From positions 8,610-72,609 of the forward strand of contig DASYDW010000020.1 of the NCBI GenBank assembly GCA_036499395.1: DNA of 64,000 bases. Reading direction: 5' to 3'. The stretch's first letter is position 1, and each line of letters opens with the position of its first letter. Positions 51,301-64,000 of this stretch are shown in pieces. The notes beneath the pieces are model-generated. The model worked only from the letters and a program-made list of their open reading frames with translations, was not told the origin of the DNA and searched no databases. This stretch comes from Pirellulales bacterium. Lineage in GTDB: Bacteria; Planctomycetota; Planctomycetia; Pirellulales; JACPPG01. Made by a program: the position numbers and the translations under genes.

Positions 51301-54300
51301 GATCACGGGCCACATCACGGCGCAGGGGACCGAAAAGGCGGCGCTTGGCGGGCGGTTGTTTTATGTGCCGCATCCCGACAATCCTCACATGGTGGACCTG
51401 CCGGAATTCAATTCACACCGCTTGCCAGGCCCGCAATGGCGCTACGAAGCCGATAGCGATGGAAATTATCGCATCGTCGGCTTGCCAGGGCGCGGCTATC
51501 TCGGCTTGTGGGTCATGAGAGACGAACCTTGCCCTGCCGGACAAGGGATCGATCAGATCAAAGATTTGCCCAAGGACGAAGCGTTCTACAAGACGACGTA
51601 TATGTTCTCGCCGCGTTCAAAAAGTGTCACCGCAGTTCGTGAATTGCAAATTGGCGATCAAGACGAGCAAGCGACGGCCGATTTCGTTAGCTCATCCGGC
51701 CAGCGCGTGACATTGAAGCTTGTCGATGTCCAGGACCTCCCCCTCGAAGGGGCGAAGATTTGGGGCCTCTGGCCGCGGCAGCAGCATCACATCGAAAAGA
51801 GAGCCGCCGCGCAGATCGACGTGGTTGGCCTTAGCGCCACTGAAAAGCGTCGAGTACTGCTGTACGACGAAAGTCGCAATCTCGGCAGTGCGGTTCTGGT
51901 CGGCAAGCAGGAAACCGGCGAGGTCGCGATCACGGCCAAATTGCAACCTTGTGCGACGGTCAACGGCCGTTTACTGGATAAAGAAGGCGAGCCGCTTGCC
52001 TCCGCGAAGGTCGAATTCCAGATCCCAGGCGAATACGACTACGCACTCGGCTTCCCCAGCGGGGACACCGACAAAGATGGCCGTTTCAGGGTCACAAACC
52101 TGCCGACCGGCTGCTCGTGGGATATTCTCTGCCGCGCGCCCAATATCGTCGGGGTCTCGATTGTTAGTGGCCTGACACCAGCGCCCGGCGAAACGATCGA
52201 CGTGGGCGAATTTGACATCACGGCCGATGAACGTCCAGTACTGATCCGCACGACGCGCACTGGCGCAGCGCCCGGCAATGCGCAAGCAAATGCCGATAAG
52301 ACCGAAGCTGCATCCCCAGCGATCGTGAAGACTTCGGATGGCGCGTCACCGTCAGACAATCCAGTGACGAAATCAGAATCGCCGGCTGAAAAGCAGGTCA
52401 TCGCTGGACGCGTGACGCAGCCTGATGGGCAACCGATCGCCGGGGCGCGGGTTTGGTTGATGCGTTACACGATCGCCGACATCTCTTGGGATAATAAGAA
52501 TATTACCCTCGCCGAGACAACCACCGATGCGCAAGGTGCCTTTCGTCTCGATCATCCGGCGGAGGTCGCACCGTTTTCCGATCGCGAGCGATTCTTGCGA
52601 ACAAGTCTTGTCGTTGCGGCCACGGCGCCGGGCTTCGGCCTGACGTGCAAACCACGCTCCGCCGAGGCCAAGAAGGATCTCGAGCTGACGTTGCCGCCTG
52701 CCACCGTGAAGGCGCAAGGGCAAGTCCTTAATCTGGAGGGGCGCCCGCTCGTCGGTGCCCAGCTGCGCGTCATCGGCATTAGCGATCCGCACGACGACAT
52801 GCCGGGTTGGATTGCCAAAGCGAAGCTGAATCCGCGTGAATCGGGCAACACGCTTCTCATGGAGGCGAAGGCCGACCGTCGGCGGTCCTCAAAGCGGGCG
52901 GCTGTCTATTTCCCTGAATTTCCGATGGGGGCGATCCCGCGCGAACTCACTGGCCCCTTCGTCACGGATGCGCAGGGAAGAGTTGACCTTGGTGTGTGGG
53001 GAGACAATCGTCTTTTGCAGGTCGAATTGTCCGGGCCTGGCATGGCCAAATCATGGGTCCATATCATTACGTATCCTATGCCTCCCATTTTTGAACCGAG
53101 CGGCGACCCTCGCTATGTGAACGCTTCATACTTTGGTGCGGATTTCCGTCTCACGGTTGAGCCCGAGCAGGTAATTCAAGGCACGATCGCCGACGCCGAG
53201 AAGGGAACGCCGATCGCCGGCGCCGAAGTGCGGCTCTTCCAGTTCGGCGACAGCTTACTAGGGGTGCATGGCTTTGTTTCGTCGACGACCGACGCGCAAG
53301 GCAAATACGTGCTGCACGGAGTCGCCAAGCCAAAGCAGCCAAATGCCCAGCACAGATTGGAAGTTCTTCCGGGCCCGAGCAGTCCCTACTTTCGCACGAC
53401 ATTCCGCGTACCTCGACAGGATGGATTAGCTCCGATCACACATGACGTGTCGCTGCGGCATGCTGCCTGGATCACGGGGCGTGCGACCGAAAAAGCCACC
53501 GGCAAACCGGTGCGCGGCGCGGTCAGCTACTACCCGTTTCTCGACAACGAGCAGGCGCGCAACTATTCGAACTTCACGCCAGGCATGACGTCCATGGGGT
53601 ACGACGATCACTATCCCACAGCCGAAGACGCCTCATTTCGCCTGCCAGCCATTGTAGGACGGGGCGTCCTGCTGTTTATCGCTGAAGACCAGGACGAATA
53701 TCCGGCGGCTGACGGCGTTGACCAAATCGCTGGGCTCAAGGGGGGCAAGGAACGGAACCTGAATCTCTATCATTTCGCTTCCGCGGATTTGGCCAATGCC
53801 CTGCGCGAAGTGAATATCATGCCCGAAGATACAGACGTCCGGTTGAATGTCGAGCTACCCTCGTTCGCCGGATATCCCATTCGCTTTGTCGACTCGCGAG
53901 GAAGTCCCGTAGCAGGCGTGATGGCTCGACGTTTGCGACCACCGCATGGCCGCCGCGAATACAACGGTTGGGGTGATGTGAAACCGGTCGGATCGGAAAC
54001 AATCTTGCGCGGCTTCGAAGAATTGGAAAGCATGCCGGTCATTGCTTTGGCGCGCGCGAAGGGCCTAGGCGCCGTTCATGAGTTTCGGAAGTCCGACTTT
54101 GACGGGGATAAAGCTTACGAACTGAAGCTCGAGCCCTGTGCCACTGTGAAGGGACGCCTGGTCGATAAGTCAGGCAAGCCGCTACGCGGCATCAGTGTCA
54201 CAGCCAAATGGAATCCCTTCACTGGTCAAAAAACCCGCTCGTGGCGTTCGTGGGAGCACAACATCAACTCACTGTTCTCGGACGCCGAAGGGCGGTTTTC

Positions 54301-56521
54301 GCTTCCTGAACTGCCGCCCGGAATCGCTTATGAGTTGTCAACTTACTCAAACGACTTGGGCCAAGTGGAATTTGGCAAGACGGATATCCTCGCGCCGGGC
54401 CAGGTCGTCGACCGCGGAGACCTGACGTGCAAGCCGGCCGAGGACGAGGCCGTCGCCGAGGCGGATGCGGATGCAAAGCCCGTAAAAACGAAGTTGATGT
54501 TCCGCATCGACTCAAAACCGGCAGCCCCGGCCGCAGGTGAAAAGCAAGACGTGAAGATAGTTTCTTCGCCTGGCACGAAGGAAGCCACGACCGCAGTTGT
54601 GCGAGGACGCGTTGTTAACGCCGATGGTCAGCCCATTGTCGGGGCTGATGTAGCGGTCATTGCGATGCGCACCGTCAACGAGCCGGGCGGTTTCCTCAGC
54701 GCACTCGGAGAAATTCCCGCCGAGGGGAAGACCGACGACGCGGGGCAATTCACGTTCACGTTTCCGAAGCTGTCCACGAAGACCCATCAATCGGCGTACG
54801 TCATTGCTCGGGCCACGGGCTTGGGCCTGGCCTTTGCAAAGCTAAATCTAAGCGACGGTGAATTCGACGTGACTTTCAAGGTGCTGCCGGAGGAATCAAT
54901 ACGCGTTCGCATCGTAAACGTTGATGGGCAGCCCGGTGTCGGTGTGCCGATGCGGATTCAGGCGATCACTCCTCAAGACGGCGGAGGGGACTGGCAGAAG
55001 TCCATTGCCTTTACTCAGACCAAGACATATCCCGCGGCGTGGTTAACGGCGCCAGTGCCTGATAAGGAGGGGCGATTCGTACTTCATGGCGTACCACCCG
55101 GGTACGGCGTTTCGCTCGACGTGCTGGGCGACGAGCAGTTCGCCCCACAGCAAGTGTCGCTGAATACTGGTTTACCGGAAGAGCGGACCGAACGGGATGC
55201 CACGTATCGCCCACTGGTCAAGAATGGAAAGCCCGGCGAAGAAGTCGTGTTGCCGCTGGCGCCGGCGCAATGGTTCGAAGGGATCGTTCGCGCCGCCGAC
55301 ACGAATGAACCCATTGCGCATGCCAAGGTGTCGGTATGGGCCAGTCAACAGCAATACGGCTCGATGTCGCGCGTTAAAGGCGAATCCGACGACGTGGGCC
55401 ATTACCGCATCAGTTCCCATCCGGGAATCCGCTTCGGCTTCAACGTGATTGCCCCGGACGGCACCCCGTATCTGAACTATAAGACGTCGTTGGACGAGCC
55501 CATCGACTGGCAGACAGGCGAGCATGTACGTAAGGCGGATATCCCGCTGTCGCGCGGCATTCTTGCTCGCGGCACGATCGTCGATGGAAAATCAGGCGAA
55601 CCGATCGCGGGGGCCTCGGTGCAATACATCCCTGAAAGCGACAATAATCCCAACGCAAAACAGGAAATTCTTACCGGTTGGCAAAACATGCGCCCTTCCG
55701 ACGAGCAGGGCCGATTCAATATCGTCGTATTGCCGGGTCCCGGACGGTTGCTGGTGCATGGTCCGAACGGCTCGTACATCCTGCGCGAGATCGGCAGTCG
55801 CGAGCTTTACGGATCGAAACGTGGTGGCGAGCGCAATTATGCCCATGCGATCGAGAAGGTTAATCCTGCGGCCGGGCAGGAACCGCTCGAATTGCGGATC
55901 GCCATCGAGCGCGGTGAGCGAATTCATGGCCGAATCGTCGACGAGCAAGGTTCAAGTGTTAATGAAGTGCTCGTGATTACTGGCTTGAGCATTCGCCCCT
56001 TTTGGCTCACATGGCACGGGGACACCGAACCCACGGAAAGAGATGAGTTCGAGCTGTCCGGCATGGAATCTGGAGTGGAATATCCAACGTTGTTCCTGGA
56101 GCCGAAGCGCCGCCTGGGCGCCGTCGTGAAGCTGAAATCCACTGACACCGAACCGACAATTGTGTTGCATCCGTGTGTCGACGCCAAAGCACGCTTCCTC
56201 GATACCGATGGCGCGCCCAAGGCCGCGATTCGCCCCAATTTCCACCTGGTCGTTAAGCCGGGAGGTTTTCGCTACAACAACCTGGCGCAGCGGATGGGGG
56301 AATTGGCCGCGGATGAAAACTTCGTGGCAAATATCGATCGTGTGAACTACAACGACGGACCAAAAACTGATGACGATGGCCGGGTCGTGTTTCCCGCGCT
56401 CATTCCCGGTGCAACCTACCGGCTGCTCGGAGCGCGCAAAGGCAATTTGACGATGGAACGCGACTTCGTCGTGCCGGCGGGCGAAACGCTCGACCTGGGC
56501 GACATCACGTACGACGATTAG
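42356..56521 (+). CDS. Giant (4,721 aa) BlaR1/MecR1-type M56 signal-transducing metalloprotease fused to six large paralogous extracytoplasmic modules
   Basis: Single uninterrupted track ORF. The N-terminal ~430 aa have hydrophobic helices, HELAH at 43253..43267 followed by RRRDCFWN and FFQPLVW. The remainder is repetitive beta-sandwich-like units of the form GRVxDPDGxPxxGAxV. Confidence 0.85.
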   Translation: MMLASMWIELLESAATICELAGHWFVQSTLLIGVGLLAGRCFANRGAAFTSVIYRTALVAAVLCPLATWLLMQFGLTLGIASLPALRVASIQQVAVYHQADPVSVAQSPPIEPGNPSETWPSTAPDLAGLSRTEDESPDTERRPTTEQAQSFGLSPESSPSPAPGSMLEPTPAAVPPIDTRPAAESADMIVEMVPTLVINPSMATIVASVALVWLFGAFHLLLRLTAAHVALLRLRRAAVPAIAEQQQLCWELAEKMGVWPPAVLTSPFVPGPCLAGVLHSTILLPDELPDVPLATVFVHELAHLRRRDCFWNVARQAVSALLFFQPLVWRLSRRMETTAEEVCDDYVVQHGADRTAYADILVSLAERAWLPASSAVVPLVTFRSLLGRRVARILDGTRRLSLSVSLTALALIVGGGLAATVGTGALGPAGRGTSSESTNAEESIPAPETDAESATAPLNDENADEKSVASGTPPTAVAAVPDANLVLHYRGRVLDPDGKPLAGAAVFFTFDDWGRQLDRTSRRMAATGADGWFDFQTRRSDFEPNVATSWLAPGVVITADGFGCAQAASLAFETTGEARKRMSDVARRRVDEQLVEHDPIVRLVRDDAPLTGRLVSTEGKPLVGARVVARRVYYNTEGILDAWETGVRQPKADADAQYRAVPRGGFPNDMVSILPAAITDRDGRFTLHGVGRERLADIEITGDALEATPLHVRTRNGDAVTLPYRWAATPRALEPRQVYLGNDFLQVIPYAQPVSGRVIDAQTRKPMAQVLVSGGKFDLRPGGIQPRITTQTDDQGRYTLHGLIVGQEEVLHVTPPGGEPYVPIGARVTTALQKPATCDFALRRGVWLRGKVTEKQSGQPLEGVLTYRAFANNLSLSLYPGFIWLSSEHRCHPDEAGNYQLAIPPGPGVISFMATDYKRFRRGAGVETITRPPRMSPGNPPTYAAVPSLFMPEDCTILAQVNPADDAKSVDVNLLPEAGATISVRLVDREGRALSQVECGSTYRDGYWETVDGKGFDVLAYYPTEPRDLFFYDSDRDLAAYHRLEGPAPKELTVVLTPAASVRGRLFDESGAALPHVGLGWFDIPKDRLGQLAISTDDDGRFRIRGLVPGRRYMARAATNVIFGDLVFDSPVAAGEAKDLGDVRLEAVGTTELTKAAEEVNDTTKAADFPEAELVLHYRGRVLDPDGKPVTGAKVFLLSFHDQDNPNDMARPRPVTGDDGWFDFSTRKSDFPLDIGKQWLSPRLTVAANGFGCAAGSSADFETTGEAQKRLSDYDKKLEEFGTEKHGNVLQLARDDAPLTGRLVSTEGKPLADVTVAVQTVWYNAAGDLAPWDAAAKEDRADYYSLRNVVPLFAGVSRLPVVLPATTDAEGRFTLHGIGRERVVDLLIAGPGLETVSIHARTRAGHTVEVPHQWRESERKGSASSRPEIYLANDFLQVIAPAQPVVGRITDVETGAPIADVKVSAGHFGMFLGSGKSYISSTTDAEGRYSLEGLTIGEETKLYITPSKATAYLPAGDDVTTSGTGPTTRDFTLRRGIWVRGRVSEAGTGQPLDGEVAYYAFRDNPHLSDYRGFSRFRGEYGCRPDEQGNFQIAVPPGAGILGFMAREHDRFRRGAGVESVTHAADSQREMMRSYPVVPHGLFSHNKHLVKQIDVAPDAAEVVANLSLVPGATFAGRIVDPAGKPLPGCVMNGQVLSGVWREVEKDSFEVSAYYPDEPRDLYFFHPERNLAAHYHLAGEAPHDLTIQLQPAASVQGRLLNGQGEPATGISFVGEGICSSRFDERDFRGGTDEEGRFHIQGLAPGRKYTVEARENIYDLGRVFADLSLTAGETKDLGDITLVPPDEKSKPVVKVAVGASSANKSKDAAPAAASGTADNADAEPVILNPPPAVEFKKPADVNPKSAPNENSTAAPPIAAVITPEPDLTLRYRGRVVDPDGRPAAGAKIFFHYWVQGAAPRGDLAPLAVTDADGWFDFTTRTSDFDALAENSRYSCGIVATAPGSGFAQGRSIDFETTGEAIKHLSPEVVENVRARRSEQGPSVLQLVRDDVPLVGQVLTIEGKPVAGARVRLHDVMLNSIAKGGGTLDSWEQAAVDSKANFYTLRNQHLPVNINTWQLPSIVPDVKTDAEGRFTVRGIGRERVAKLLIQGPDIEASLVKTRTRAGEILRFGEFSDRTMGGAERSDTVYPHKFTFAAGPSKPVSGRITDADTGAPVAGVTVTAGQTGTFMGFGKVYVSAQTDADGRYRLEGLSIGKREEILAWPPTASGYVPVGAGVTLALDRPASDLDFRLKQGIWLRGQAIDKVTGKPIVGRVQYFSRSKNPQLSSYPGFARARLAYELRSDAQGRFEMPIPPGPGIVTYMAMDHTHYRKGQGAENVAGGSGGEIKTYDTVPMGLFDLNEHVLREINPASTDKSIELTLPIEAGLEVYGKIVDPQGAPLPGGIMSSADYSDFWRTHAIRDNTFHVQGYYHDAPRELFFFNAERNMAGHYHLAGSPPENLVIKLAPAGSIRGRLVDKQGAALARIELTGEGIPSSRHEGPDYMLATDDDGNFLIRGLIPGRRYTVEGRGGEQYGRLLEDVTVEAGPPKDVGDVTLVRPEPKQNATAKTQSELPVTTNPIGVPAIRSASPVDVPEQSATTPEKPIVIVGQVLDPEGRAVAGAEVALQGHRWEWFQSRPDPDRTKTDAQGNFRLEVSKSQFSDGKPKNWAKLARLVARAPGYGMAGMHFSDLQPGIPAKIRLVPDQPIEGRIVDLEGNPVAGAKIDIFSVTTNEQNDLTAWVAALRRGVPFHSSEGNGRPHLELTTGDKKLSDPSSAPWTTDADGRFRITGLGQNRFVNLKLAGGGVVAIDLHVITQPFSTFSMKWDASANVGEVPIHGATFQYIAEPSQPIEGVVRDAKSGDPLPGVRVWSEHLAGAKVSGDFRLQTTADKNGHYRLEGMPRGKGNRICALPQDDQPYFMQEFDVPQADGLAAVQFDLPLHRGVLITGHITAQGTEKAALGGRLFYVPHPDNPHMVDLPEFNSHRLPGPQWRYEADSDGNYRIVGLPGRGYLGLWVMRDEPCPAGQGIDQIKDLPKDEAFYKTTYMFSPRSKSVTAVRELQIGDQDEQATADFVSSSGQRVTLKLVDVQDLPLEGAKIWGLWPRQQHHIEKRAAAQIDVVGLSATEKRRVLLYDESRNLGSAVLVGKQETGEVAITAKLQPCATVNGRLLDKEGEPLASAKVEFQIPGEYDYALGFPSGDTDKDGRFRVTNLPTGCSWDILCRAPNIVGVSIVSGLTPAPGETIDVGEFDITADERPVLIRTTRTGAAPGNAQANADKTEAASPAIVKTSDGASPSDNPVTKSESPAEKQVIAGRVTQPDGQPIAGARVWLMRYTIADISWDNKNITLAETTTDAQGAFRLDHPAEVAPFSDRERFLRTSLVVAATAPGFGLTCKPRSAEAKKDLELTLPPATVKAQGQVLNLEGRPLVGAQLRVIGISDPHDDMPGWIAKAKLNPRESGNTLLMEAKADRRRSSKRAAVYFPEFPMGAIPRELTGPFVTDAQGRVDLGVWGDNRLLQVELSGPGMAKSWVHIITYPMPPIFEPSGDPRYVNASYFGADFRLTVEPEQVIQGTIADAEKGTPIAGAEVRLFQFGDSLLGVHGFVSSTTDAQGKYVLHGVAKPKQPNAQHRLEVLPGPSSPYFRTTFRVPRQDGLAPITHDVSLRHAAWITGRATEKATGKPVRGAVSYYPFLDNEQARNYSNFTPGMTSMGYDDHYPTAEDASFRLPAIVGRGVLLFIAEDQDEYPAADGVDQIAGLKGGKERNLNLYHFASADLANALREVNIMPEDTDVRLNVELPSFAGYPIRFVDSRGSPVAGVMARRLRPPHGRREYNGWGDVKPVGSETILRGFEELESMPVIALARAKGLGAVHEFRKSDFDGDKAYELKLEPCATVKGRLVDKSGKPLRGISVTAKWNPFTGQKTRSWRSWEHNINSLFSDAEGRFSLPELPPGIAYELSTYSNDLGQVEFGKTDILAPGQVVDRGDLTCKPAEDEAVAEADADAKPVKTKLMFRIDSKPAAPAAGEKQDVKIVSSPGTKEATTAVVRGRVVNADGQPIVGADVAVIAMRTVNEPGGFLSALGEIPAEGKTDDAGQFTFTFPKLSTKTHQSAYVIARATGLGLAFAKLNLSDGEFDVTFKVLPEESIRVRIVNVDGQPGVGVPMRIQAITPQDGGGDWQKSIAFTQTKTYPAAWLTAPVPDKEGRFVLHGVPPGYGVSLDVLGDEQFAPQQVSLNTGLPEERTERDATYRPLVKNGKPGEEVVLPLAPAQWFEGIVRAADTNEPIAHAKVSVWASQQQYGSMSRVKGESDDVGHYRISSHPGIRFGFNVIAPDGTPYLNYKTSLDEPIDWQTGEHVRKADIPLSRGILARGTIVDGKSGEPIAGASVQYIPESDNNPNAKQEILTGWQNMRPSDEQGRFNIVVLPGPGRLLVHGPNGSYILREIGSRELYGSKRGGERNYAHAIEKVNPAAGQEPLELRIAIERGERIHGRIVDEQGSSVNEVLVITGLSIRPFWLTWHGDTEPTERDEFELSGMESGVEYPTLFLEPKRRLGAVVKLKSTDTEPTIVLHPCVDAKARFLDTDGAPKAAIRPNFHLVVKPGGFRYNNLAQRMGELAADENFVANIDRVNYNDGPKTDDDGRVVFPALIPGATYRLLGARKGNLTMERDFVVPAGETLDLGDITYDD
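43811..56518 (+). repeat. Six tandem paralogous coding modules (about 640-690 aa each) separated by low-complexity A/P/T/S/E/K linkers
   Basis: Approximate module spans: 43811..45793, 45878..47875, 48128..50135, 50281..52225, 52397..54430, 54593..56518. Opening motifs: LVLHYRGRVLDPDGKP (x2), LTLRYRGRVVDPDGRP, IVIVGQVLDPEGRA, VIAGRVTQPDGQP, VVRGRVVNADGQP. Closing motifs: AGEAKDLGDVR, AGETKDLGDIT, AGPPKDVGDVT, PGETIDVGEFDIT, PGQVVDRGDLT, AGETLDLGDIT. Modules 1-3 are clearly alignable by eye. Modules 4-6 are more diverged, and all boundaries are approximate. Confidence 0.7.
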
Positions 56522-56567: not shown

Positions 56568-57959
56568 ATGCCGAAAGAGTCATCCGAGACTATCGCGTCG
56601 GCTTACTGGCCGCGCTACGAACCGTCGGAACAGGCGCCGTGGAATCTGCGCCGCGTCGTTCATCTGCATCGCCGCGCCGGTTTTGCCGGCACGTGGCAGG
56701 AATTGACACGCGACCTTTCCGATGGCCCGCAAGCTTCGATCGACCGCTTCTTGCATGGGAATGCTTATTCGACGGCGCTGCCCGACGATTTCGAGACGGT
56801 GTCGCAGGCCTTGTCCGACGCGGCCGTGTCGTCGAGCAATCCGCAGCGGCTGAAGGCGTGGTGGCTCTATCGCATGATCTTTTCGGCCAATCCGCTGGCC
56901 GAGCGTTTGACCCTGCTGTGGCACAATCATTTCGCAACCAGCAACGCCAAAGTCGACAGCGTCGAGATGATGCGCGACCAGAATGTGACACTGCGGGCCA
57001 GCGCCAGCAAATCGTTCAAAGAATTGCTGCCGGCCGTCGTCAAAGGGCCGGCCATGCTCGTCTGGCTTGACGCCGACAAGAATCGCGCCGGCCATGCCAA
57101 TGAGAATCTCGGGCGCGAATTGCTCGAACTGTTCACACTCGGCATCGGCCACTACACCGAGGACGACGTGCAGCAGGCGGCTCGCGCGCTGACGGGCTGG
57201 CGCGTCGTGGGACGTGCGTTTCGCAATGACGAGAAGATTCACGATGCGGGCGACAAGACGATACTCGGTCATACAGCAAGGTTTTCCGGAGACGACCTCC
57301 TCGCGATTGTGCTCGCGCAGCCGGCCACCGCTCATCGCATTGCGGCGCGCATTTGCCGAATGCTATTGGGCGAGGCGAGTGTCGAGCCAGGGGCCGTCGA
57401 CGCGCTGGGCGAGGGCCTGCGTGAACATGACCTGGACATTGGCTGGGCCGTGGAAACAGTGCTGCGCTCTGAGCAGTTCTTCGCCGAGAACGCGGTGGGG
57501 CAACGTTTCGTCGCCCCGCCGGAATATGTCGTTGGCGCCGTGCGAGCTCTGGAATGTCTCGCGCAACCTCCCAGCACGCTACTTTTGGCCGAGGCCGCTA
57601 CCCGGATCGGGCAAGATCTGTTTTATCCGCCGAACGTGGGTGGCTGGAACGAAGGCCGATCTTGGCTGAACACCTCCGCCGTCGTGGCTCGCACCGGTTT
57701 CGCATCAGCACTCGTCGAGGGGCGACTGATGCATGACAATACGCCTCCCGATTTCGCGGCGCTCGTCGAACGGCACGCCAGCACAGCGGATTTGTCTGGC
57801 GCGACGCGCTGGCTTGGTGAATTGTTGTTTGGCGGCTTGCCGTCAGAAACGATCGATCTGGTCGCGCGCGAGGCCGCACGGAATGCTGATCCACGACGCT
57901 CCCCCTTGGCCACGGCCGTGCTGTTCCTGCTTTCGCGTCCCGAAGCGTATTTGGGTTGA
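56568..57959 (+). CDS. DUF1800 domain protein
   Basis: 463 aa. WWLYRMIFSANPLAERLTLLWHNHFATS, ENLGRELLELFTLGIGHYTEDDV, PPNVGGW. Confidence 0.85.
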   Translation: MPKESSETIASAYWPRYEPSEQAPWNLRRVVHLHRRAGFAGTWQELTRDLSDGPQASIDRFLHGNAYSTALPDDFETVSQALSDAAVSSSNPQRLKAWWLYRMIFSANPLAERLTLLWHNHFATSNAKVDSVEMMRDQNVTLRASASKSFKELLPAVVKGPAMLVWLDADKNRAGHANENLGRELLELFTLGIGHYTEDDVQQAARALTGWRVVGRAFRNDEKIHDAGDKTILGHTARFSGDDLLAIVLAQPATAHRIAARICRMLLGEASVEPGAVDALGEGLREHDLDIGWAVETVLRSEQFFAENAVGQRFVAPPEYVVGAVRALECLAQPPSTLLLAEAATRIGQDLFYPPNVGGWNEGRSWLNTSAVVARTGFASALVEGRLMHDNTPPDFAALVERHASTADLSGATRWLGELLFGGLPSETIDLVAREAARNADPRRSPLATAVLFLLSRPEAYLG

Positions 57960-57992
57960 TTACATAGAAAGAGCCTCACCGGAGCCATCGCC

Positions 57993-59195
57993 ATGTTGAC
58001 GCGACGCGAGTTACTGAAGCACTCGGCTTTATTGTCGCTAGCCCCTTGTGTGCCGGCATTTCTTAGCCGGACCGTTCATGCCGCAGAGCGTGACCGCGAG
58101 GGGCGCGTCTTGGTCGTCATTCAGCTCGACGGCGGTAACGACGGTTTGAACACGGTGATCCCTTTCCGAGACGAGAATTACGCGCGCTTGCGGCCCAAGC
58201 TGGCGCTCAAGGATGATCGACGGATCAAGATCACCGACGACGTGGCACTGCATGCCTCGCTGAAGCCCGTCGCTGCGCTCTTTGAGGACAAAAGTCTGGC
58301 AATCGTGCAGGGGGTTGGCTACCCCAATCCCAACCGCTCGCACTTCCGCAGCATGGCCATCTGGCAATCGTCGCGCCTGGAAGACGCGGAGCACGGACAA
58401 TATGGCTGGCTAGGACGCACGCTCGACAAACGGGCCACGGCTGAAAGCAGCCCGGACGCGGTGTACGCCGGCACCGGCGCAGTGCCTGTCGCGCTGTGGG
58501 GACGTCGCAGCGTGACGGCGGCGATCTCTTCGCTCAATGACCTGTCGCTGTCGGTGCCCCCCGACATTCTGCGCAGTGCCATGGCCGAGACCGCCGACGC
58601 CGGTGAACTCGCGCGACTGGTCGCCCGCGCGAGTGACGACGCATTTACGACGGCCCAGCGGCTGACGGCCGTGACTCAAGCGCCGAAGTCGGGAGCAACC
58701 GGTTACGGCGATTCGCGCCTGGCCGAGCAGTTGCGAATCGTCTCGGCGTTGCTCAAATCCGGCAGCCCGACGCGCGTTTTTTACACATCGCAGAGTGGTT
58801 ATGACACGCATGCCGTGCAGGCGAACGAACATTCGCAGTTGCTGCGAACGCTATCAGGCGCGCTTAAGGGTTTTCTCAATGATCTCTCCGAGAGCGGTCT
58901 CGCGGATCGTGTGCTGGTGCTCGCCTTCAGCGAATTCGGCCGCCGCGTGGCAGAGAACGACTCGGCGGGCACCGATCACGGCGCGGCTGGTCCCGTTTTC
59001 CTGGCGGGAAACTGCCTGGCTGGCGGAGTAATCGGGAGCACGCCCAACCTGGCTGACCTGGTCGACGGAGACGTTCGTACGACTGTCGATTTCCGCCAGG
59101 TCTATGCGACAATCCTGGAAGAATGGCTCGACGTTCGGGCGGCCGAGGTTTTAGGCGGCGTCTTTGCGCCACTCCCTTTGTTCAAGTCAGCTTGA
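57993..59195 (+). CDS. DUF1501 domain protein (sulfatase/alkaline-phosphatase-like superfamily), Tat signal
   Basis: 400 aa. MLTRRELLKHSALLSLAP. LDGGNDGLNTVIPF, QSGYDTHA, FSEFGRRV, GTDHGAAGP. Confidence 0.85.
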   Translation: MLTRRELLKHSALLSLAPCVPAFLSRTVHAAERDREGRVLVVIQLDGGNDGLNTVIPFRDENYARLRPKLALKDDRRIKITDDVALHASLKPVAALFEDKSLAIVQGVGYPNPNRSHFRSMAIWQSSRLEDAEHGQYGWLGRTLDKRATAESSPDAVYAGTGAVPVALWGRRSVTAAISSLNDLSLSVPPDILRSAMAETADAGELARLVARASDDAFTTAQRLTAVTQAPKSGATGYGDSRLAEQLRIVSALLKSGSPTRVFYTSQSGYDTHAVQANEHSQLLRTLSGALKGFLNDLSESGLADRVLVLAFSEFGRRVAENDSAGTDHGAAGPVFLAGNCLAGGVIGSTPNLADLVDGDVRTTVDFRQVYATILEEWLDVRAAEVLGGVFAPLPLFKSA

Positions 59196-59214: not shown

Positions 59215-59231
59215 GCAGCGTGTACCGCTGC
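59215..59231. terminator. Small GC hairpin (GCAGCG-TGTAC-CGCTGC) between convergent genes
   Basis: Read directly, between the DUF1501 stop (59195) and the stop of the minus-strand lipoprotein gene (59231..59233). No U-tract, so only a weak terminator candidate. Confidence 0.25.
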
Positions 59232-60187
59232 TAGTTCAACAGGCCAGAGAGCCAGTGCATGATGTTGAGGGCCATTTGGCGGTTGTCGCACCCCGGCACG
59301 TTCATGCCCATCCTGCCTACCGGTTCGCTACCATAGATTTGTGCTGATAGCTCTGCAGCTTCACCCAGCACGACGACGCGTCCCTTGCCATGTTGGAATG
59401 CGATCCCTTGCGCGCGGCCACGGGCCGAGCGTTCTTGCCCCGGCCCGAGGGTATCGACCGCGGTGTCAGCGAACTTCACAAATGCGATGCTGTCCGGTGG
59501 TCCTATTAATGACTGGCCGGTGAAGGTCAAGACGCGGTTGACCTTTTCGGATTCGTCGCGGCCTAGTGTGACAGGATGATCGGCCACCAGACCCTTGTCG
59601 CGACCAAACAGCAGACCATCTTTCGTTTCGTTGGCCGTATCACTGGCGACGCCCTCGCTCATGTCTACGCCGAATCGGCCGGCCAGCGTCGCGGCGGCCG
59701 TACCAAAGGGCTGATGGTCTGTGATTAGCAGCAGCGATCCGCCCTGATCGACGAAGTCCTGGACCGCCTGACATTCAGCCTCGGTAAAGGCGGAATCTCG
59801 CATATCGCTCGCGTTTACGGCATTGGCAATCACCAGCACAGCAGCGTTTTGCAAGGTGTCGGCCGTGAAAGGCTGCTCGTTCGGCACGATGCGATAGCCG
59901 TCATACCTCATCAAGTCAGCGAATACCCGGTATCGGCCGAACGTGGTATGGAAGTTGTTGTGGGCTTCGTCAAAGAGAACGATCGGATGTGTATCCGGAT
60001 AGGCGGGGTGCGCAATCGTCGTATCGAACTGTGGATCCGCGCGCTGGCCGGTTTCCGCAGGTTTTGCGCTGCACGAAACGCCGGTTATCACGCCTGCGAC
60101 CAATGCCGCCAGCAGGAACAAGACCGTTCCCGTGGCCTGTCGGCGCGGTCTGACGCTAGCCGCCGACGATTTGCAAAGCGATGGCAT
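59231..60187 (-). CDS. Exported lipoprotein of unknown function (possibly DUF4350-like)
   Basis: 318 aa. Lipobox-like LVAGVITGVSC. IVLFDEAHNNFHTTFGRY...VLVIANAV...QGGSLLLITDHQPFG. The start is 3 nt after the stop of the upstream TPP-enzyme gene. Confidence 0.6.
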   Translation of the reverse strand: MPSLCKSSAASVRPRRQATGTVLFLLAALVAGVITGVSCSAKPAETGQRADPQFDTTIAHPAYPDTHPIVLFDEAHNNFHTTFGRYRVFADLMRYDGYRIVPNEQPFTADTLQNAAVLVIANAVNASDMRDSAFTEAECQAVQDFVDQGGSLLLITDHQPFGTAAATLAGRFGVDMSEGVASDTANETKDGLLFGRDKGLVADHPVTLGRDESEKVNRVLTFTGQSLIGPPDSIAFVKFADTAVDTLGPGQERSARGRAQGIAFQHGKGRVVVLGEAAELSAQIYGSEPVGRMGMNVPGCDNRQMALNIMHWLSGLLN

Positions 60188-60190
60188 GGT

Positions 60191-62158
60191 TTAATGCGCC
60201 ACAGCGCCGCAGCCTGGTTCGGGATTCAGCGAAACCCCCGGCGGATAGTTCTTCGCCGAAGTGAATTCCTTCATCCCTTGGCAGTTGATCAACGTGGACA
60301 AGTTCTCCTTCGTTGCCGAGGCATAGCTGCGATGCAACGCTTCGCGCAGCTCCTCGGGCGTCCGCACGTATTCGCCGCGCGCGCCCAGCCCTTCGGCCAT
60401 CTTGTCGTACCGCAAATGCTGCTGGAAAAGGTAGAGATGCATCGAGCGTGCCGATGAAACAGCACTGGGCCACATACCCCAGCAATCGTTGTTATAGATC
60501 ACGCCGATCACGGGCAGCTTATACTTGGCCGCGGTATCGAGCTCGAACAAGCTGTAGGCGATGCCGGCATCGCTGCTGACGCACACCGTCGGCGCACCTT
60601 TATACGGTGCTTGCGGCCCGACGCCGTGTTGCACCGCGGCGCTGGCGCCGATCATCATGGCCAGGTCCGGGCCGATGGCTCCGTATTGATAAGGACAGAC
60701 GATTCCCTGTCCCGGACGGTAAGCGCGTTGCCAGCGGCCGGCATGTACGCCGATCGTCCAACCGCCGCCCCCCAGCACCGTTTGCTTGGGATCGATATCA
60801 CCCTTATAGAAGAAATCGTGAACTTCCTTGCACAGCGCCGCAGGATGCAGGTAATTCGTATCGCGGCTGTACTTCACTCCCAGCTCGTACTGGTCGTTCA
60901 GCATCTTGTCGTATTTTTGCCGTGCCGAGGCCAGCTCGTTCACCCACGATTCGCGCTTGCGGGCCGGCAGCAAATCCGCGAGCGCTTCGAGAAACGGCTT
61001 TTCGCTGCTGACGATCCCCAGGTCTAACGGCCAGTTTCGCCCCAGGTCCTCTTGCACCGGATGAACGCGAATCGTCTTCACGTCAGGATTGCAACGATAC
61101 TCGCCCGGGCTGGGCATGCAGTACTGCCCGACGAAGATCACCAGGTCCGCACTCATTACCGCGTCCGGTGATAGCGCGGCGGATAGACGATGATCATCCG
61201 GAAAATGGCCGCGTGTCGGTCCGGACGTTACCACAGCGAGTTCGTTTTTCTCGGCCGCCTTCAGCAGTGGCTCCCAAGCCTTGTTTTGAAACACGCCTTG
61301 GCCGGCAATCAACAGGGGCCGCTCGGCGCGGGTGATCATGTCGAGAGCTTTTTCGACATCCTTGGCCGCGGGGCTGGGCCGAGACTCGGTCCGATACTTG
61401 TCTTTGCTGTAATAGTCCTTCAGTTTGGACGGATCAGTGAAGCGAGCGCGGGCGACCTCGCCAGGGAAGTCCAGATGCACCGGGCTGGGAACGCCCGACT
61501 TTAGATTTCTGAAGGCGTAAGCGCCGTATTCCCACACACGGTCGGGGGCGATCAAACGCTTGCCGTATTTCTTCATGCCGGTGGTCAGCGGTTGCTGATA
61601 GCCGGTTTGAATAAACGTTTCGCGATCGTCGCCGGCCATTTGCATATTGCTGGCCAGCACCAACAGCGGCGTCCGCGCTGCTGCGGCCGAGGCGATGTTC
61701 ATGATCATGTTGGTCAGGCCCGGCCCTTCGGTGCCCGAGCAAGCCGTGACCTCGCCCGTGGCGCGAGAAAAACCATCGGCAGCCGCGGCCATCGCTCCTT
61801 CGCAACGCCCACCGAAGGCTGGCACGCCGGCCGCCGCGATGGCGTTGATCACGGTGTAATTGCCAGGGCAGCAGAACAGCGCAGCCAGCTCTTCGTCTTT
61901 ACAGAGCTTCGCGAACACCTCGGCACCGGTCATGCCCTGCCCTTCGAACGTAGGGGGCTTCGGCGCCTCGCTGACCGATTCCAAAACTTCCTTGGGGATC
62001 GAAATCGACGGGATGCTCGCCGCGGGAACGCCGGCCTTGCTCTCCGTAACCATGCCAGCCACCAGCGCGCCGGCGCCGGCCGCTGAAGAAAGTAAAAACG
62101 ACCGGCGGGAGGAATCCACGGTCTGGTTCGTGCTGTCGTTCGTCTTCTGGGTTTTCAT
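60191..62158 (-). CDS. Thiamine-diphosphate-dependent enzyme (acetolactate-synthase/pyruvate-oxidase superfamily) with twin-arginine signal peptide
   Basis: 655 aa. SSRRSFLLSSAAGAGALVAG Tat motif. Pyr domain: GGRCEGAMAAAADGFSRATGEVTACSGTEGPGLTNMIMNIASAAAARTPLLVLASN. PP domain: SSDAGIAYSLFELDTAAKYKLPVIGVIYNND, a variant of the GDG...NN cofactor motif. Confidence 0.8.
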   Translation of the reverse strand: MKTQKTNDSTNQTVDSSRRSFLLSSAAGAGALVAGMVTESKAGVPAASIPSISIPKEVLESVSEAPKPPTFEGQGMTGAEVFAKLCKDEELAALFCCPGNYTVINAIAAAGVPAFGGRCEGAMAAAADGFSRATGEVTACSGTEGPGLTNMIMNIASAAAARTPLLVLASNMQMAGDDRETFIQTGYQQPLTTGMKKYGKRLIAPDRVWEYGAYAFRNLKSGVPSPVHLDFPGEVARARFTDPSKLKDYYSKDKYRTESRPSPAAKDVEKALDMITRAERPLLIAGQGVFQNKAWEPLLKAAEKNELAVVTSGPTRGHFPDDHRLSAALSPDAVMSADLVIFVGQYCMPSPGEYRCNPDVKTIRVHPVQEDLGRNWPLDLGIVSSEKPFLEALADLLPARKRESWVNELASARQKYDKMLNDQYELGVKYSRDTNYLHPAALCKEVHDFFYKGDIDPKQTVLGGGGWTIGVHAGRWQRAYRPGQGIVCPYQYGAIGPDLAMMIGASAAVQHGVGPQAPYKGAPTVCVSSDAGIAYSLFELDTAAKYKLPVIGVIYNNDCWGMWPSAVSSARSMHLYLFQQHLRYDKMAEGLGARGEYVRTPEELREALHRSYASATKENLSTLINCQGMKEFTSAKNYPPGVSLNPEPGCGAVAH

Positions 62159-62212
62159 GATGAAATTCCGAGGGCGCGGGGGTGAGATGCGATTTTCGGG
62201 CTTGAGAGCTAG

Positions 62213-62668
62213 CTATTCTTGCAGCTTCGGGCGCGCGTCTTCAGGCCACAGACTGCGCAGGTAGTTTGTCATGTGCCAAAGGTCTTCCTCTTTTTCCACT
62301 TTCTTGGAAAACGGCGGCATCGCCTCGCCGGCGCCATCGCGAATACTGCGAAACACTTCTCCTTCCGACGTGCCACTCTTCCAGTACTTGGGCTCAGTCA
62401 AATCCGTGGCATTGGCCACGACGTCCACGAGCGACTTTCCGTCCGCGCCGTGGCATTCCGTGCAATCGCGAGTGTAAAGGACCTTTCCGCGCGCGATCGA
62501 GGGTTTGCTGAACGCCACCGGCGATTTCAGCTTTTTCGCGGCCTCGATTGTTAGCCGGCCGTCGACGGCTGGTGTTTTATCATCCGAGTGCGCGGAAGTT
62601 GCCACGAATACTCCCAAAGCAATCGCGACCGTGGAGAGCATCGTGCCCGGAATGATTCGTTGCCACAT
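62213..62668 (-). CDS. Class I c-type cytochrome, secreted
   Basis: 151 aa. Signal MLSTVAIALGVFVATSAHS. Heme motif CTECH (62450..62464). Distal Met candidate in GEAMPPF. Confidence 0.85.
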   Translation of the reverse strand: MWQRIIPGTMLSTVAIALGVFVATSAHSDDKTPAVDGRLTIEAAKKLKSPVAFSKPSIARGKVLYTRDCTECHGADGKSLVDVVANATDLTEPKYWKSGTSEGEVFRSIRDGAGEAMPPFSKKVEKEEDLWHMTNYLRSLWPEDARPKLQE

Positions 62669-62735
62669 CAGCGGATGTCCTCAGTCGGTGTTACGTCAGG
62701 TATGCGTTGGATCTGCAATCATGAATATCTGAACT

Positions 62736-63224
62736 TCACATACGATCAGGGTCCAGATCGAACGTCTCGACAAGATAGTCGAAGTGCTCTCCTTCGGCTA
62801 AGAAGATCAGGTAAATCTCATTTACCAGATGCACAAGCTTGGTCACGGCATATTGGCAGTCGCCGCTTATGGCCGTCATCGAAAGCGATACACTCCCGGC
62901 CCGATGGCTGCTGCGAACCTCGACCCGCGCGCGATCGATACGGCGATGTTCGGGTAAGTCATCAGATTGCCGGGCCTCGATGAATGCTTTCAAATCCTTG
63001 TGCATCGGCGCCGAAACCTGGGGCAATAGTTCGGTCAGGCGCAATGTGCCACGTTTATTATCAAAGACAAGCTCGAAAGCACGGCCGCGATGCCAGACAA
63101 TTTGGAACGCAGTCTTCCCGCGGGCAGCAGACTGACGGCTGAACGATTGAAACACGCCACGCTCGGCGTATCTGGCCAGGGTTTCGGCGACCGCGTCGCT
63201 CGTAGACAGTGTTGCTTTGGTCAC
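62736..63224 (-). CDS. Hypothetical protein (no recognisable motif)
   Basis: 162-aa ORF, same orientation as and 67 nt upstream of the cytochrome c gene. Composition looks protein-like. No signal peptide seen. Confidence 0.5.
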   Translation of the reverse strand: MTKATLSTSDAVAETLARYAERGVFQSFSRQSAARGKTAFQIVWHRGRAFELVFDNKRGTLRLTELLPQVSAPMHKDLKAFIEARQSDDLPEHRRIDRARVEVRSSHRAGSVSLSMTAISGDCQYAVTKLVHLVNEIYLIFLAEGEHFDYLVETFDLDPDRM

Positions 63225-63521
63225 TTGCGGATTCCTGAACCGGAGTCGATACCGCGAGATGCTCTACCAGGCAATGAAGTTAATACCCGGCGAAACTGGC
63301 AGTCGACTTACCCCTCAGCGATAATATCGTGCGCCGCGCGTGAAATACAATGTTTTCGCCTGCGGTGATCTCGAGGGTGGCTGGATTCACAGATTTCCGA
63401 AAAATTCTCGTCGGCAGGTGTAACCAAACCGTTCGGGCGTCCTCAGTTACCTATAGCGGCTCCTGGACTCGCCGCCGGGGGGCCGCAGCGAAGTCGTGGC
63501 GGCGACCCAGCGAGTTGACGG

Positions 63522-64000
63522 TTGAGTGCCGATACCGAGCAAAGCGATCTGGCGCACAGTGCCGCGGGAGACGGGGAGGCGTACGCGCGGATCGTGCGTA
63601 AGTATCAATCCCAGGTCGCGCGGCGGATGCGGTCGTTCGCCCGGCAGCCCGCTGTGATCGAAGAATTGGTACAAGAGGTGTTCGTCGATGCCTATTATGG
63701 GCTACGCGGATACCGGGGGGATGGGGAGTTTGGGGCATGGCTGGCTCGAATCGCCACTCGGGTTGGTTATCGCTACTGGAAAAAGAACCGTCGTCGCGAG
63801 GAAGTCGGCCGGGACGATAGCTGGTGGAGGCACGTGGCTCAGCAAGAAGTCGAGGAGCTGGATCCCACAGCGGCCGGCCAATTCATTCACAACTTGCTCG
63901 ATCGCTTGCCACCCCGAGACCGCCTGGTGATGCTGCTAATACATGTCGAAGGTCTCAGTGTCGAGCAGGCGGCGCAACTTGCCGGTTGGTCCAAAACGAT
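63522..64000 (+). CDS. ECF-type sigma-70 family factor, 3' end beyond the window
   Basis: Not in the track because it has no stop in the window. An in-frame TGA at 63516..63518 limits the start to TTG 63522. Translation: SADTEQSDLAHSAAGDGEAYARIVRKYQSQVARRMRSF...ELVQEVFVDAYYGLRGYRGDGEFGAWLARIATRVGYRYWKK (region 2)...LPPRDRLVMLLIHVEGLSVEQAAQLAGWSKT (region 4). Confidence 0.7.
   Translation, partial: MSADTEQSDLAHSAAGDGEAYARIVRKYQSQVARRMRSFARQPAVIEELVQEVFVDAYYGLRGYRGDGEFGAWLARIATRVGYRYWKKNRRREEVGRDDSWWRHVAQQEVEELDPTAAGQFIHNLLDRLPPRDRLVMLLIHVEGLSVEQAAQLAGWSKT

Follow-up and report, generated by a model that had tools for sequence, protein, structure and literature searches.

The stretch of DNA analysed here, referred to as the window, comprises 64,000 nucleotides (nt) from a Pirellulales bacterium of the phylum Planctomycetota (assembly GCA_036499395.1, contig DASYDW010000020.1, positions 8,610 to 72,609 of the forward strand) and carries a conserved unit of three genes, which encode an enzyme dependent on thiamine diphosphate (ThDP) with a signal for twin-arginine translocation (Tat), a mono-haem cytochrome c and a small partner protein of 162 amino acids (aa). 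The reading that we favour, with a probability of roughly 55%, is that the unit makes a periplasmic ThDP oxidoreductase, which converts a small aldehyde or 2-oxo acid to the acid and delivers two electrons to the dedicated cytochrome c. A known enzyme superfamily would thus be met in a new compartment and with new partners. The components of the unit and the parts of the enzyme are given below in window positions, with strands relative to the 64,000-nt stretch.

62736..63224, minus strand: gene of the 162-aa partner protein (open reading frame, ORF; no Pfam or NCBIfam family match)
62213..62668, minus strand: 151-aa class I mono-haem cytochrome c (Pfam; haem motif CTECH, axial ligand Met117)
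60191..62158, minus strand: 655-aa ThDP enzyme of the decarboxylase-like (ALS/POX/OXC) superfamily (Pfam N, M and C domains)
62033..62158, minus strand: predicted twin-arginine signal peptide, enzyme residues 1-42 (TIGR01409; conservation)
62090-62110, minus strand: SRRSFLL, enzyme residues 17-23 (sequence motif)
61613..61933, minus strand: Pyr domain, enzyme residues 76-182, with the catalytic Glu120 in GGRCEGAM (Pfam TPP_enzyme_N)
60980..61357, minus strand: middle Rossmann-like domain, enzyme residues 268-393 (Pfam TPP_enzyme_M)
60323..60742, minus strand: PP domain, enzyme residues 473-612, with SDAG-x24-NN (Asp530, Asn556, Asn557) (Pfam TPP_enzyme_C)
60194..60280, minus strand: C-terminal extension, enzyme residues 627-655, KEFTSA..YPPG...EPGxGAxAH (alignment of C-termini)

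The gene order, strand and gaps given in a preliminary description of this DNA match the ORF list exactly, with 67 nt between the 162-aa gene and the cytochrome gene, 54 nt between the cytochrome and enzyme genes and 3 nt between the enzyme gene and a downstream lipoprotein-like gene, and the four motifs that it named (CTECH, SRRSFLL, GGRCEGAM and SDAG...NN) are all present in the ORF translations. Between the genes of the locus, no terminator-like site rises above the level of shuffled sequences. Enzyme, 162-aa protein and cytochrome are each encoded by a single copy in the genome of the window.

The linkage was surveyed in about 60 collected loci. In 46 of these, the enzyme gene shares its strand with genes for a small cytochrome c and for a homologue of the 162-aa protein. 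Three arrangements occur, namely small protein-cytochrome-enzyme (23 loci), cytochrome-enzyme-small protein (14) and enzyme-small protein-cytochrome (9); the conserved unit is three genes, and it survives the shuffling of their order. The association is closest between the enzyme and the 162-aa protein: of the 201 genomes searched in the window's order, 11 were found to have the 162-aa family and 10 the enzyme, all 10 being within the 11. The protein that the preliminary description had called hypothetical is thus the tightest partner of the enzyme.

Carriers of the genes come from at least four phyla and belong to Planctomycetota, Acidobacteriota, Hydrogenedentota and Gammaproteobacteria, the last including Pseudohalioglobus lutimaris, marine Porticoccaceae and Pseudomonadales; two named strains are among them, P. 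lutimaris HF004, which has the trio, and Bryobacterales F-183. More than 1,800 clusters (90% identity) from soil and marine bacteria match the enzyme at E <= 1e-150, and all four sets of reads that contain DNA of the locus are soil metagenomes, with no RNA data set listed as containing it. The distribution is patchy: the enzyme was found in two families within the window's order and in 22 of 401 sampled Acidobacteriota, and 400 other sampled Planctomycetota genomes held no further carrier at E <= 1e-100. Subclades differ in their identity to the window's enzyme (about 57%, 50% and 40%), and some genomes carry two of them. Since the planctomycete enzymes nest inside acidobacterial ones, in both the main and the 50% subclades, and identity across phyla reaches 73-78%, the sequences suggest horizontal transfer of the unit between phyla. 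Two loci of the window's order (L035 in genome G537 and L036 in G525) hold extra copies of the enzyme at 73-75% identity, with the twin-arginine (RR) motif kept and with the small-protein and cytochrome genes not detected alongside, the upstream flank of L035 being only 367 nt long; these copies form a clade of their own in the tree, and both genomes hold a complete trio elsewhere.

The enzyme looks catalytically competent, as judged from its three domains and its cofactor and catalytic residues. TPP_enzyme_N, M and C all score over their cut-offs (74, 70 and 65 bits), Glu120 is kept in at least 90% of the family and outgroup sequences, and the Mg-ThDP ligands Asp530 (invariant), Asn556 (at least 90% conserved) and Asn557 (also conserved) stand in a motif, SDAG-x24-NN, which is a variant of the usual GDG-x(24-27)-NN. 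The middle domain carries a Gly-rich loop, IAGQG, after its first strand, and such a loop is common to FAD-binding, ADP-binding and empty homologues. The AlphaFold2 (AF2) model of the enzyme has a mean confidence (pLDDT) of 85, with residues 1-48 unstructured and below 50.

By sequence comparison, the enzyme belongs to a discrete and strongly conserved clade that matches no curated family. Its highest NCBIfam score is 163 bits, against model cut-offs of 456-1083: the acetolactate synthase models are not reached (NF004516, 163 vs 587 bits; TIGR00118, 159 vs 538), and neither are those of oxalyl-CoA decarboxylase (OXC) and 2-hydroxyacyl-CoA lyase (HACL) (NF006721, 115.7 vs 557 bits; TIGR03254, 101 vs 739; NF058623, 113 vs 600) or of pyruvate oxidase (NF006377, 104.8 vs 742 bits), and the shortfall is at least threefold for the models of glyoxylate carboligase (GCL), OXC, HACL, sulfoacetaldehyde acetyltransferase and pyruvate oxidase. 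When 1.8 billion cluster representatives were searched, full-length members of the family scored 859, 646 and 415 bits, and the next full-length proteins, of about 555 aa, reached at most 190 bits at about 30% identity. A maximum-likelihood tree joins 40 family members into one clade with an SH-like approximate likelihood ratio test support (SH-aLRT) of 100%, separated by a long branch from 20 of the nearest cytoplasmic relatives, and identity to the nearest relatives (HACL/OXC, benzaldehyde lyase (BAL), GCL and BbmA) is 20-30%. Family-specific residues are here those invariant in the family and shared by fewer than 10% of the 28 closest cytoplasmic relatives in the comparison. In the Pyr region they include Asn100 and Tyr101, right after the conserved PG motif, Glu144, and Ser170 and Asn171; to them are added Tyr187 and Gln189, Tyr490, a loop at 509-523 and His574, as well as S336, E353, P640 and H655 at the predicted interface described below or in the tail. 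The cytoplasmic relatives have no counterpart of the C-terminal extension, at the end of which stands a nearly invariant His.

At the other end of the protein, the family has an N-terminal extension of about 75 residues, made up of a variable n-region, the motif (S/T)RRxF(L/I), an Ala/Gly-rich hydrophobic region and an AxA-like site, followed in the mature protein by a conserved segment of the type IPSIxIPKE...PK..FEGxGM. The enzyme of the window has the same layout, with SRRSFLL, an Ala/Gly-rich hydrophobic region and an SKA motif before Gly43, and its first 50 residues reach the Tat signal model TIGR01409 with 17.4 bits (cut-off 16.7); of four other family members, three are just below the cut-off or without a match. 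The RR-bearing extension is found in 21 of 22 aligned members from several phyla, the lone exception being apparently truncated at its start, and the RR motif is present in most of the collected loci and conserved across four subclades; the cytoplasmic relatives lack any such extension. TatC is encoded in the same genome (197 bits). From this we infer that the enzyme is exported via the Tat pathway, which suits an enzyme that has to take up ThDP in the cytoplasm. As cytoplasmic loading of ThDP would alone explain the Tat signal, a flavin is not required to explain it.

The 151-aa protein scores over the Pfam cut-offs for Cytochrome_CBB3 (44.5 bits) and Cytochrom_C (40.4 bits), matches the MoxG and PedF models of NCBIfam weakly, and shows the features of a class I c-type cytochrome, that is CxxCH, a distal Met ligand and an export signal, the latter read from the sequence as an N-terminal hydrophobic stretch. 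Across 48 distinct cytochromes encoded beside members of the enzyme family, C69, C72, H73 and M117 show at least 90% conservation. Given the conserved linkage and the predicted shared compartment, this cytochrome may be the electron acceptor of the enzyme. Frames of 860-950 aa in some acidobacterial loci, which resembled cytochrome-enzyme fusions, were rejected as stop-poor upstream sequence in high-GC genomes without a CxxCH in the frames. The sole other weak relative of the cytochrome in the genome of the window (30% over 118 aa; contig C17, 98309-101723) sits 1.2 kb downstream of a paralogue of the redoxin/haem-c/copper proteins described below.

The 162-aa protein is without a signal peptide, so that the preliminary description of the locus as an operon of exported proteins holds for the enzyme and the cytochrome, which carry signals, but not for this partner. 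Its family comprises 122 matches at E <= 0.001 and has Y19, W44, H93, R94, R95 and E136 invariant, together with a PEHRRID motif and a DLDPD C-terminus. The AF2 model (pLDDT 92.7) gives VIA-align Z scores of 6-8.1 to more than a dozen chains, including DR_1245, Spa15, SycN/YscB, SigE, InvB and AmyR, and template modelling (TM) scores in the Atlas of 0.60 to YbjN clusters and 0.51-0.56 to CesT clusters, and Foldseek returned nothing from the PDB at E <= 0.001. At this middling level, the predicted fold resembles the YbjN/CesT class of secretion chaperones, the common fold of which is an alpha-beta-alpha sandwich. Neither Pfam nor NCBIfam matches the protein to the Tat chaperones TorD/DmsD and NapD, and these are absent from the listed fold matches.

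When modelled together with the enzyme precursor, the 162-aa protein is predicted to bind the folded enzyme and not its signal peptide. The complex has an ipSAE of 0.76 (best control 0.00). Of 80 solved complexes, 58 attain that mark, as do 2 of 110 mismatched pairs, these counts being rough and obtained with our own alignments; three runs share at least 83% of the contacts, and the pLDDT of the partner is at least 82. Most of the predicted contacts are in the middle domain of the enzyme, at residue 280, at 332-338 (332, 335-336, 338), at 351-359 (351-352, 355, 357-359) and at 377, the others being helix residues 404 and 408, residue 565 and the C-terminal tail at 635-646. Residues 1-48 make no confident contact (expected error below 8 Å), and a residue not named here is uncertain rather than free. 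The predicted interface holds five of the nine invariants of the 162-aa protein (Y19, H93, R94, E136 and, by adjacency, L142) and four nearly invariant residues (R22, V24, H45, P91), and on the side of the enzyme it includes the family-specific S336, E353 and P640.

Two fates of the partner may be envisaged, and the choice between them affects this step of the proposal only. The protein would either leave the cell with the enzyme as a Tat "hitchhiker" subunit or act in the cytoplasm as an assembly or holding factor that is released at export. That it is purely cytoplasmic, serving as an assembly, proofreading or inhibitory chaperone which stays behind, has in our judgement not far from an even chance: it would be in keeping with the missing signal peptide, with the predicted likeness to secretion chaperones and with the predicted grip on the C-terminal tail of the enzyme, the equivalent of which in OXC we take to close over the active site. 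Against this, TorD, DmsD and NapD bind the signal peptide of their substrates, whereas the partner is predicted here to touch the folded middle domain. Co-export is frequent among partners of Tat substrates that have no signal of their own, and the fold match on which the chaperone likeness is based is only middling (Z 6-8).

In the mechanism that we propose, the 655-aa enzyme would fold and load Mg-ThDP in the cytoplasm, where the 162-aa protein would bind to the underside of its middle domain and to the family-specific C-terminal tail, and would then exit via Tat, the signal for which is observed. Once in the periplasm, the ThDP ylide would add to a small carbonyl compound, either an aldehyde or a 2-oxo acid with some one to three carbons. 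Oxidation of the enamine so formed would take place in two one-electron steps, and hydrolysis of the acyl-ThDP would release the acid. The electrons would pass to the dedicated mono-haem cytochrome c and from there, as gene linkage suggests, to the respiratory chain or to periplasmic haem-c enzymes encoded nearby.

Parts of this scheme have counterparts in known systems. The best structural matches of the enzyme model are HACL/HACS and OXC (PDB 8VZA-8VZK, 6XN8, 7PT1-4, 7AYG, 2Q27; Foldseek E about 1e-33, target TM 0.82-0.88), which share the three-domain ThDP architecture and the catalytic Glu; the closest solved folds as a whole, to which GCL, BbmA and BAL also belong, have 20-25% identity. 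By sequence, the solved relatives are BbmA, HACL/HACS, OXC and benzaldehyde lyase, at E values of 1e-38 to 1e-27. The likeness to HACL and OXC has limits, as identity is only 20-25%, the curated models are far from reached, and these enzymes have no Tat signal, C-terminal His tail, cytochrome or small partner. They are cytoplasmic or peroxisomal, act on coenzyme A (CoA) thioesters and hold ADP in the middle domain. Benzaldehyde lyase/formolase, glyoxylate carboligase and BbmA (HKA synthase, PDB 8X3X; top phmmer match, E 1.5e-38) represent the same branch of the superfamily. These enzymes activate small aldehydes or glyoxylate on ThDP, the same kind of substrate as is proposed here; they differ in being redox-neutral, cytoplasmic, single-protein enzymes, and Asn100, Tyr101, Tyr187, Gln189, Tyr490 and His574 of the exported family each occur in fewer than 10% of the 28 relatives.

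For the oxidative step, pyruvate oxidase/PoxB (pyruvate:quinone oxidoreductase) and the ThDP/[4Fe-4S] oxidoreductases PFOR and oxalate oxidoreductase provide the working model, as in them the ThDP enamine is oxidised and an external carrier receives the electrons. They do so through FAD or iron-sulfur clusters and on the cytoplasmic side, and we know of none among them with a c-type cytochrome as acceptor or with a periplasmic location. The operon logic is that of the pyrroloquinoline quinone (PQQ) methanol/ethanol dehydrogenases with cytochrome cL/c550 and MxaJ/XoxJ, and of the Tat-exported aldehyde oxidoreductase PaoABC with PaoD, that is an exported cofactor enzyme, an electron subunit and a helper. 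The cofactor here is ThDP and not PQQ or molybdenum, and the helper, by its predicted fold, is YbjN/CesT-like and without a match to the XdhC/PaoD family. To our knowledge, ThDP enzymes of this superfamily have been described only from the cytoplasm or organelles, and its oxidative members pass electrons to flavin, lipoamide or iron-sulfur clusters. Full-text literature searches returned no paper that describes a ThDP enzyme either exported or linked to a cytochrome.

On either side of the unit, the window has the following features.

59231..60187, minus strand: 318-aa lipoprotein-like gene (ORF; Pfam matches below cut-off)
63225..64000, plus strand: divergent intergenic region of 297 nt, then the start of a gene for an extracytoplasmic function (ECF) sigma factor, from 63522 onward and leaving the window (Sigma70_r2, r4_2)

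The lipoprotein-like gene, which the preliminary description had counted with the set, does not belong to it. It is single-copy in its genome, its Pfam matches (IFT52_GIFT and DUF4350) are both below the cut-off, and the related loci, among them two of the same genus with 1.5 kb of downstream flank, yielded no relative of it, on which ground it was rejected as a fourth component; on this comparison it is a local passenger outside the conserved unit. A DUF1800/DUF1501 gene pair (56568-59195, plus strand), the DUF1501 protein of which has a Tat-like RRELLK motif at its start, is convergent with it, and an ORF of 4,721 aa (42356-56521, plus strand) is also a neighbour of the locus.

The divergent operon faces the trio and extends beyond the window (contig C20, 72131-77706; L091, L090). 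Starting with the gene at 63522, it encodes the ECF sigma factor (199 aa), a putative anti-sigma factor (104 aa), an LTXXQ/Metal_resist-like protein (161 aa) and two proteins of about 700 aa in which a redoxin domain is combined with a haem-c motif and a region resembling copper type II monooxygenases. The genome of the window has about 19 paralogues of this redoxin/haem-c/copper protein, and its two best matches to the copy beside the trio in locus L006 are the two proteins of this operon, the genes of which lie 1.7 and 4 kb past the 162-aa gene. Besides the window's own contig, haem-c proteins of the Cu2-monooxygenase-like type are encoded near the trio in 7 of 42 long loci. In L006, L076 and L078 the gene shares the strand of the trio and directly precedes or follows it, and in L010, L022, L026 and L079 it lies in the vicinity. 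The acidobacterial form reaches Pfam Cu2_monoox_C with 27.2 bits (cut-off 23), and the sequences have the motifs VVHHI, MPHMHLRGK and EMMIGW; a sequence search of this neighbour against the PDB detected only its redoxin domain.

PQQ dehydrogenases adjoin the trio in five distinct loci, one of Porticoccaceae and four acidobacterial loci of the 50% subclade, and in a Blastocatellia genome the trio is surrounded by a quinohaemoprotein amine dehydrogenase operon. Dehydrogenases of both kinds release aldehydes into the periplasm and use cytochrome c acceptors. In the Porticoccaceae locus (L094/L095, 2810-17469), two PQQ dehydrogenases flank the trio, with an esterase gene and two genes of TonB-dependent receptors also around it, and the identical enzyme protein is read on 23 contigs. 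Other neighbours were set aside as lineage synteny or coincidence, each being confined to one lineage: these are candidate futalosine-pathway menaquinone genes (a radical SAM gene with a CofH_C domain in L001 and L002, and a 280-aa neighbour in L016 judged by eye to be MqnA/MqnD-like) and a tatA gene (L040).

Several observations weigh against the proposed oxidoreductase. The closest solved relatives (HACL/HACS, OXC, BAL, GCL and BbmA) are non-redox lyases or ligases, some of which use CoA thioesters, absent from the periplasm, and the path of an electron from ThDP to haem is conjecture. The loci of the survey are related and not independent of one another, and in eight of them (six to eight with usable flanks) the enzyme and the small protein are present and a cytochrome was not detected; one of the eight is that of Bryobacterales F-183, where the enzyme and small-protein genes overlap. 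Eight further loci have the enzyme alone, six of them at contig ends, the other two being L036 and L063. As for the neighbours, with about 15-20 copies of the copper-protein family in a genome, adjacency by chance is not negligible, and in Pseudohalioglobus, which has the trio, none of these copper genes was found; associations of this kind are partial and serve as leads, not as evidence.

The non-oxidative character of all the closest solved relatives, together with the recurrence of PQQ and amine dehydrogenases beside the trio, would agree with a redox-neutral periplasmic lyase or carboligase, comparable to benzaldehyde lyase, formolase or glyoxylate carboligase, which joins or splits small aldehydes made by such dehydrogenases, the cytochrome then serving the dehydrogenases. 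We consider this unlikely, as the cytochrome is kept beside the enzyme through all three gene orders, a PQQ or amine dehydrogenase occurs in only about 6 of 47 long loci, and none is found within the flanks of the window's locus.

Within the proposed oxidoreductase, a more specific version may be formulated, which we hold to be rather improbable. The enzyme would be a flavin-free ThDP:cytochrome c oxidoreductase in which the enamine of an aldehyde or of glyoxylate reduces the c-haem directly, and the cytochrome would feed the neighbouring haem-c/PHM-DBH-like copper monooxygenases, replacing ascorbate. Copper type II monooxygenases consume two electrons per turnover, and their animal relatives can lead to glyoxylate. 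If this version is true and the monooxygenases release glyoxylate or another aldehyde, their by-product would be turned by the ThDP enzyme into the electron pair which they require.

Very improbable is a non-functional RR motif in an ordinary cytoplasmic ThDP enzyme which merely adjoins a cytochrome gene: TIGR01409 is barely reached, and three of four other members fall just short or do not match, which is all that speaks for it, whereas the extension with its RR motif, hydrophobic region and AxA-like site is conserved in four subclades and several phyla and absent from the relatives of about 555 aa, and the constant partner of the enzyme is an exported cytochrome c. The preliminary description, which had suggested a Tat-exported, electron-donating ThDP enzyme, had also named three findings that would tell against it, none of which was obtained. 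The start codon upstream of the RR is supported by the RR, the hydrophobic region and the mature extension, which are conserved at the protein level across phyla; the orthologues have retained the Tat motif as well as a neighbouring cytochrome c gene; and NCBIfam, the homologue search and the tree all place the enzyme apart from the known cytoplasmic families.

Among the source names listed for the homologues, this large and widespread family sits under generic names only, either "thiamine pyrophosphate-binding protein" or labels of the acetolactate synthase type. The predicted complex of the enzyme with its helper supplies concrete residues for mutation, and P. lutimaris HF004 and Bryobacterales F-183, as named carriers, offer a route to direct tests. 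We read the unit as a sign that small carbonyl compounds may be oxidised outside the cytoplasm in a manner not described so far. If the proposal is true, it would bring a new cofactor chemistry to periplasmic respiration and would give these bacteria a new route to remove or harvest aldehydes and 2-oxo acids outside the cell.

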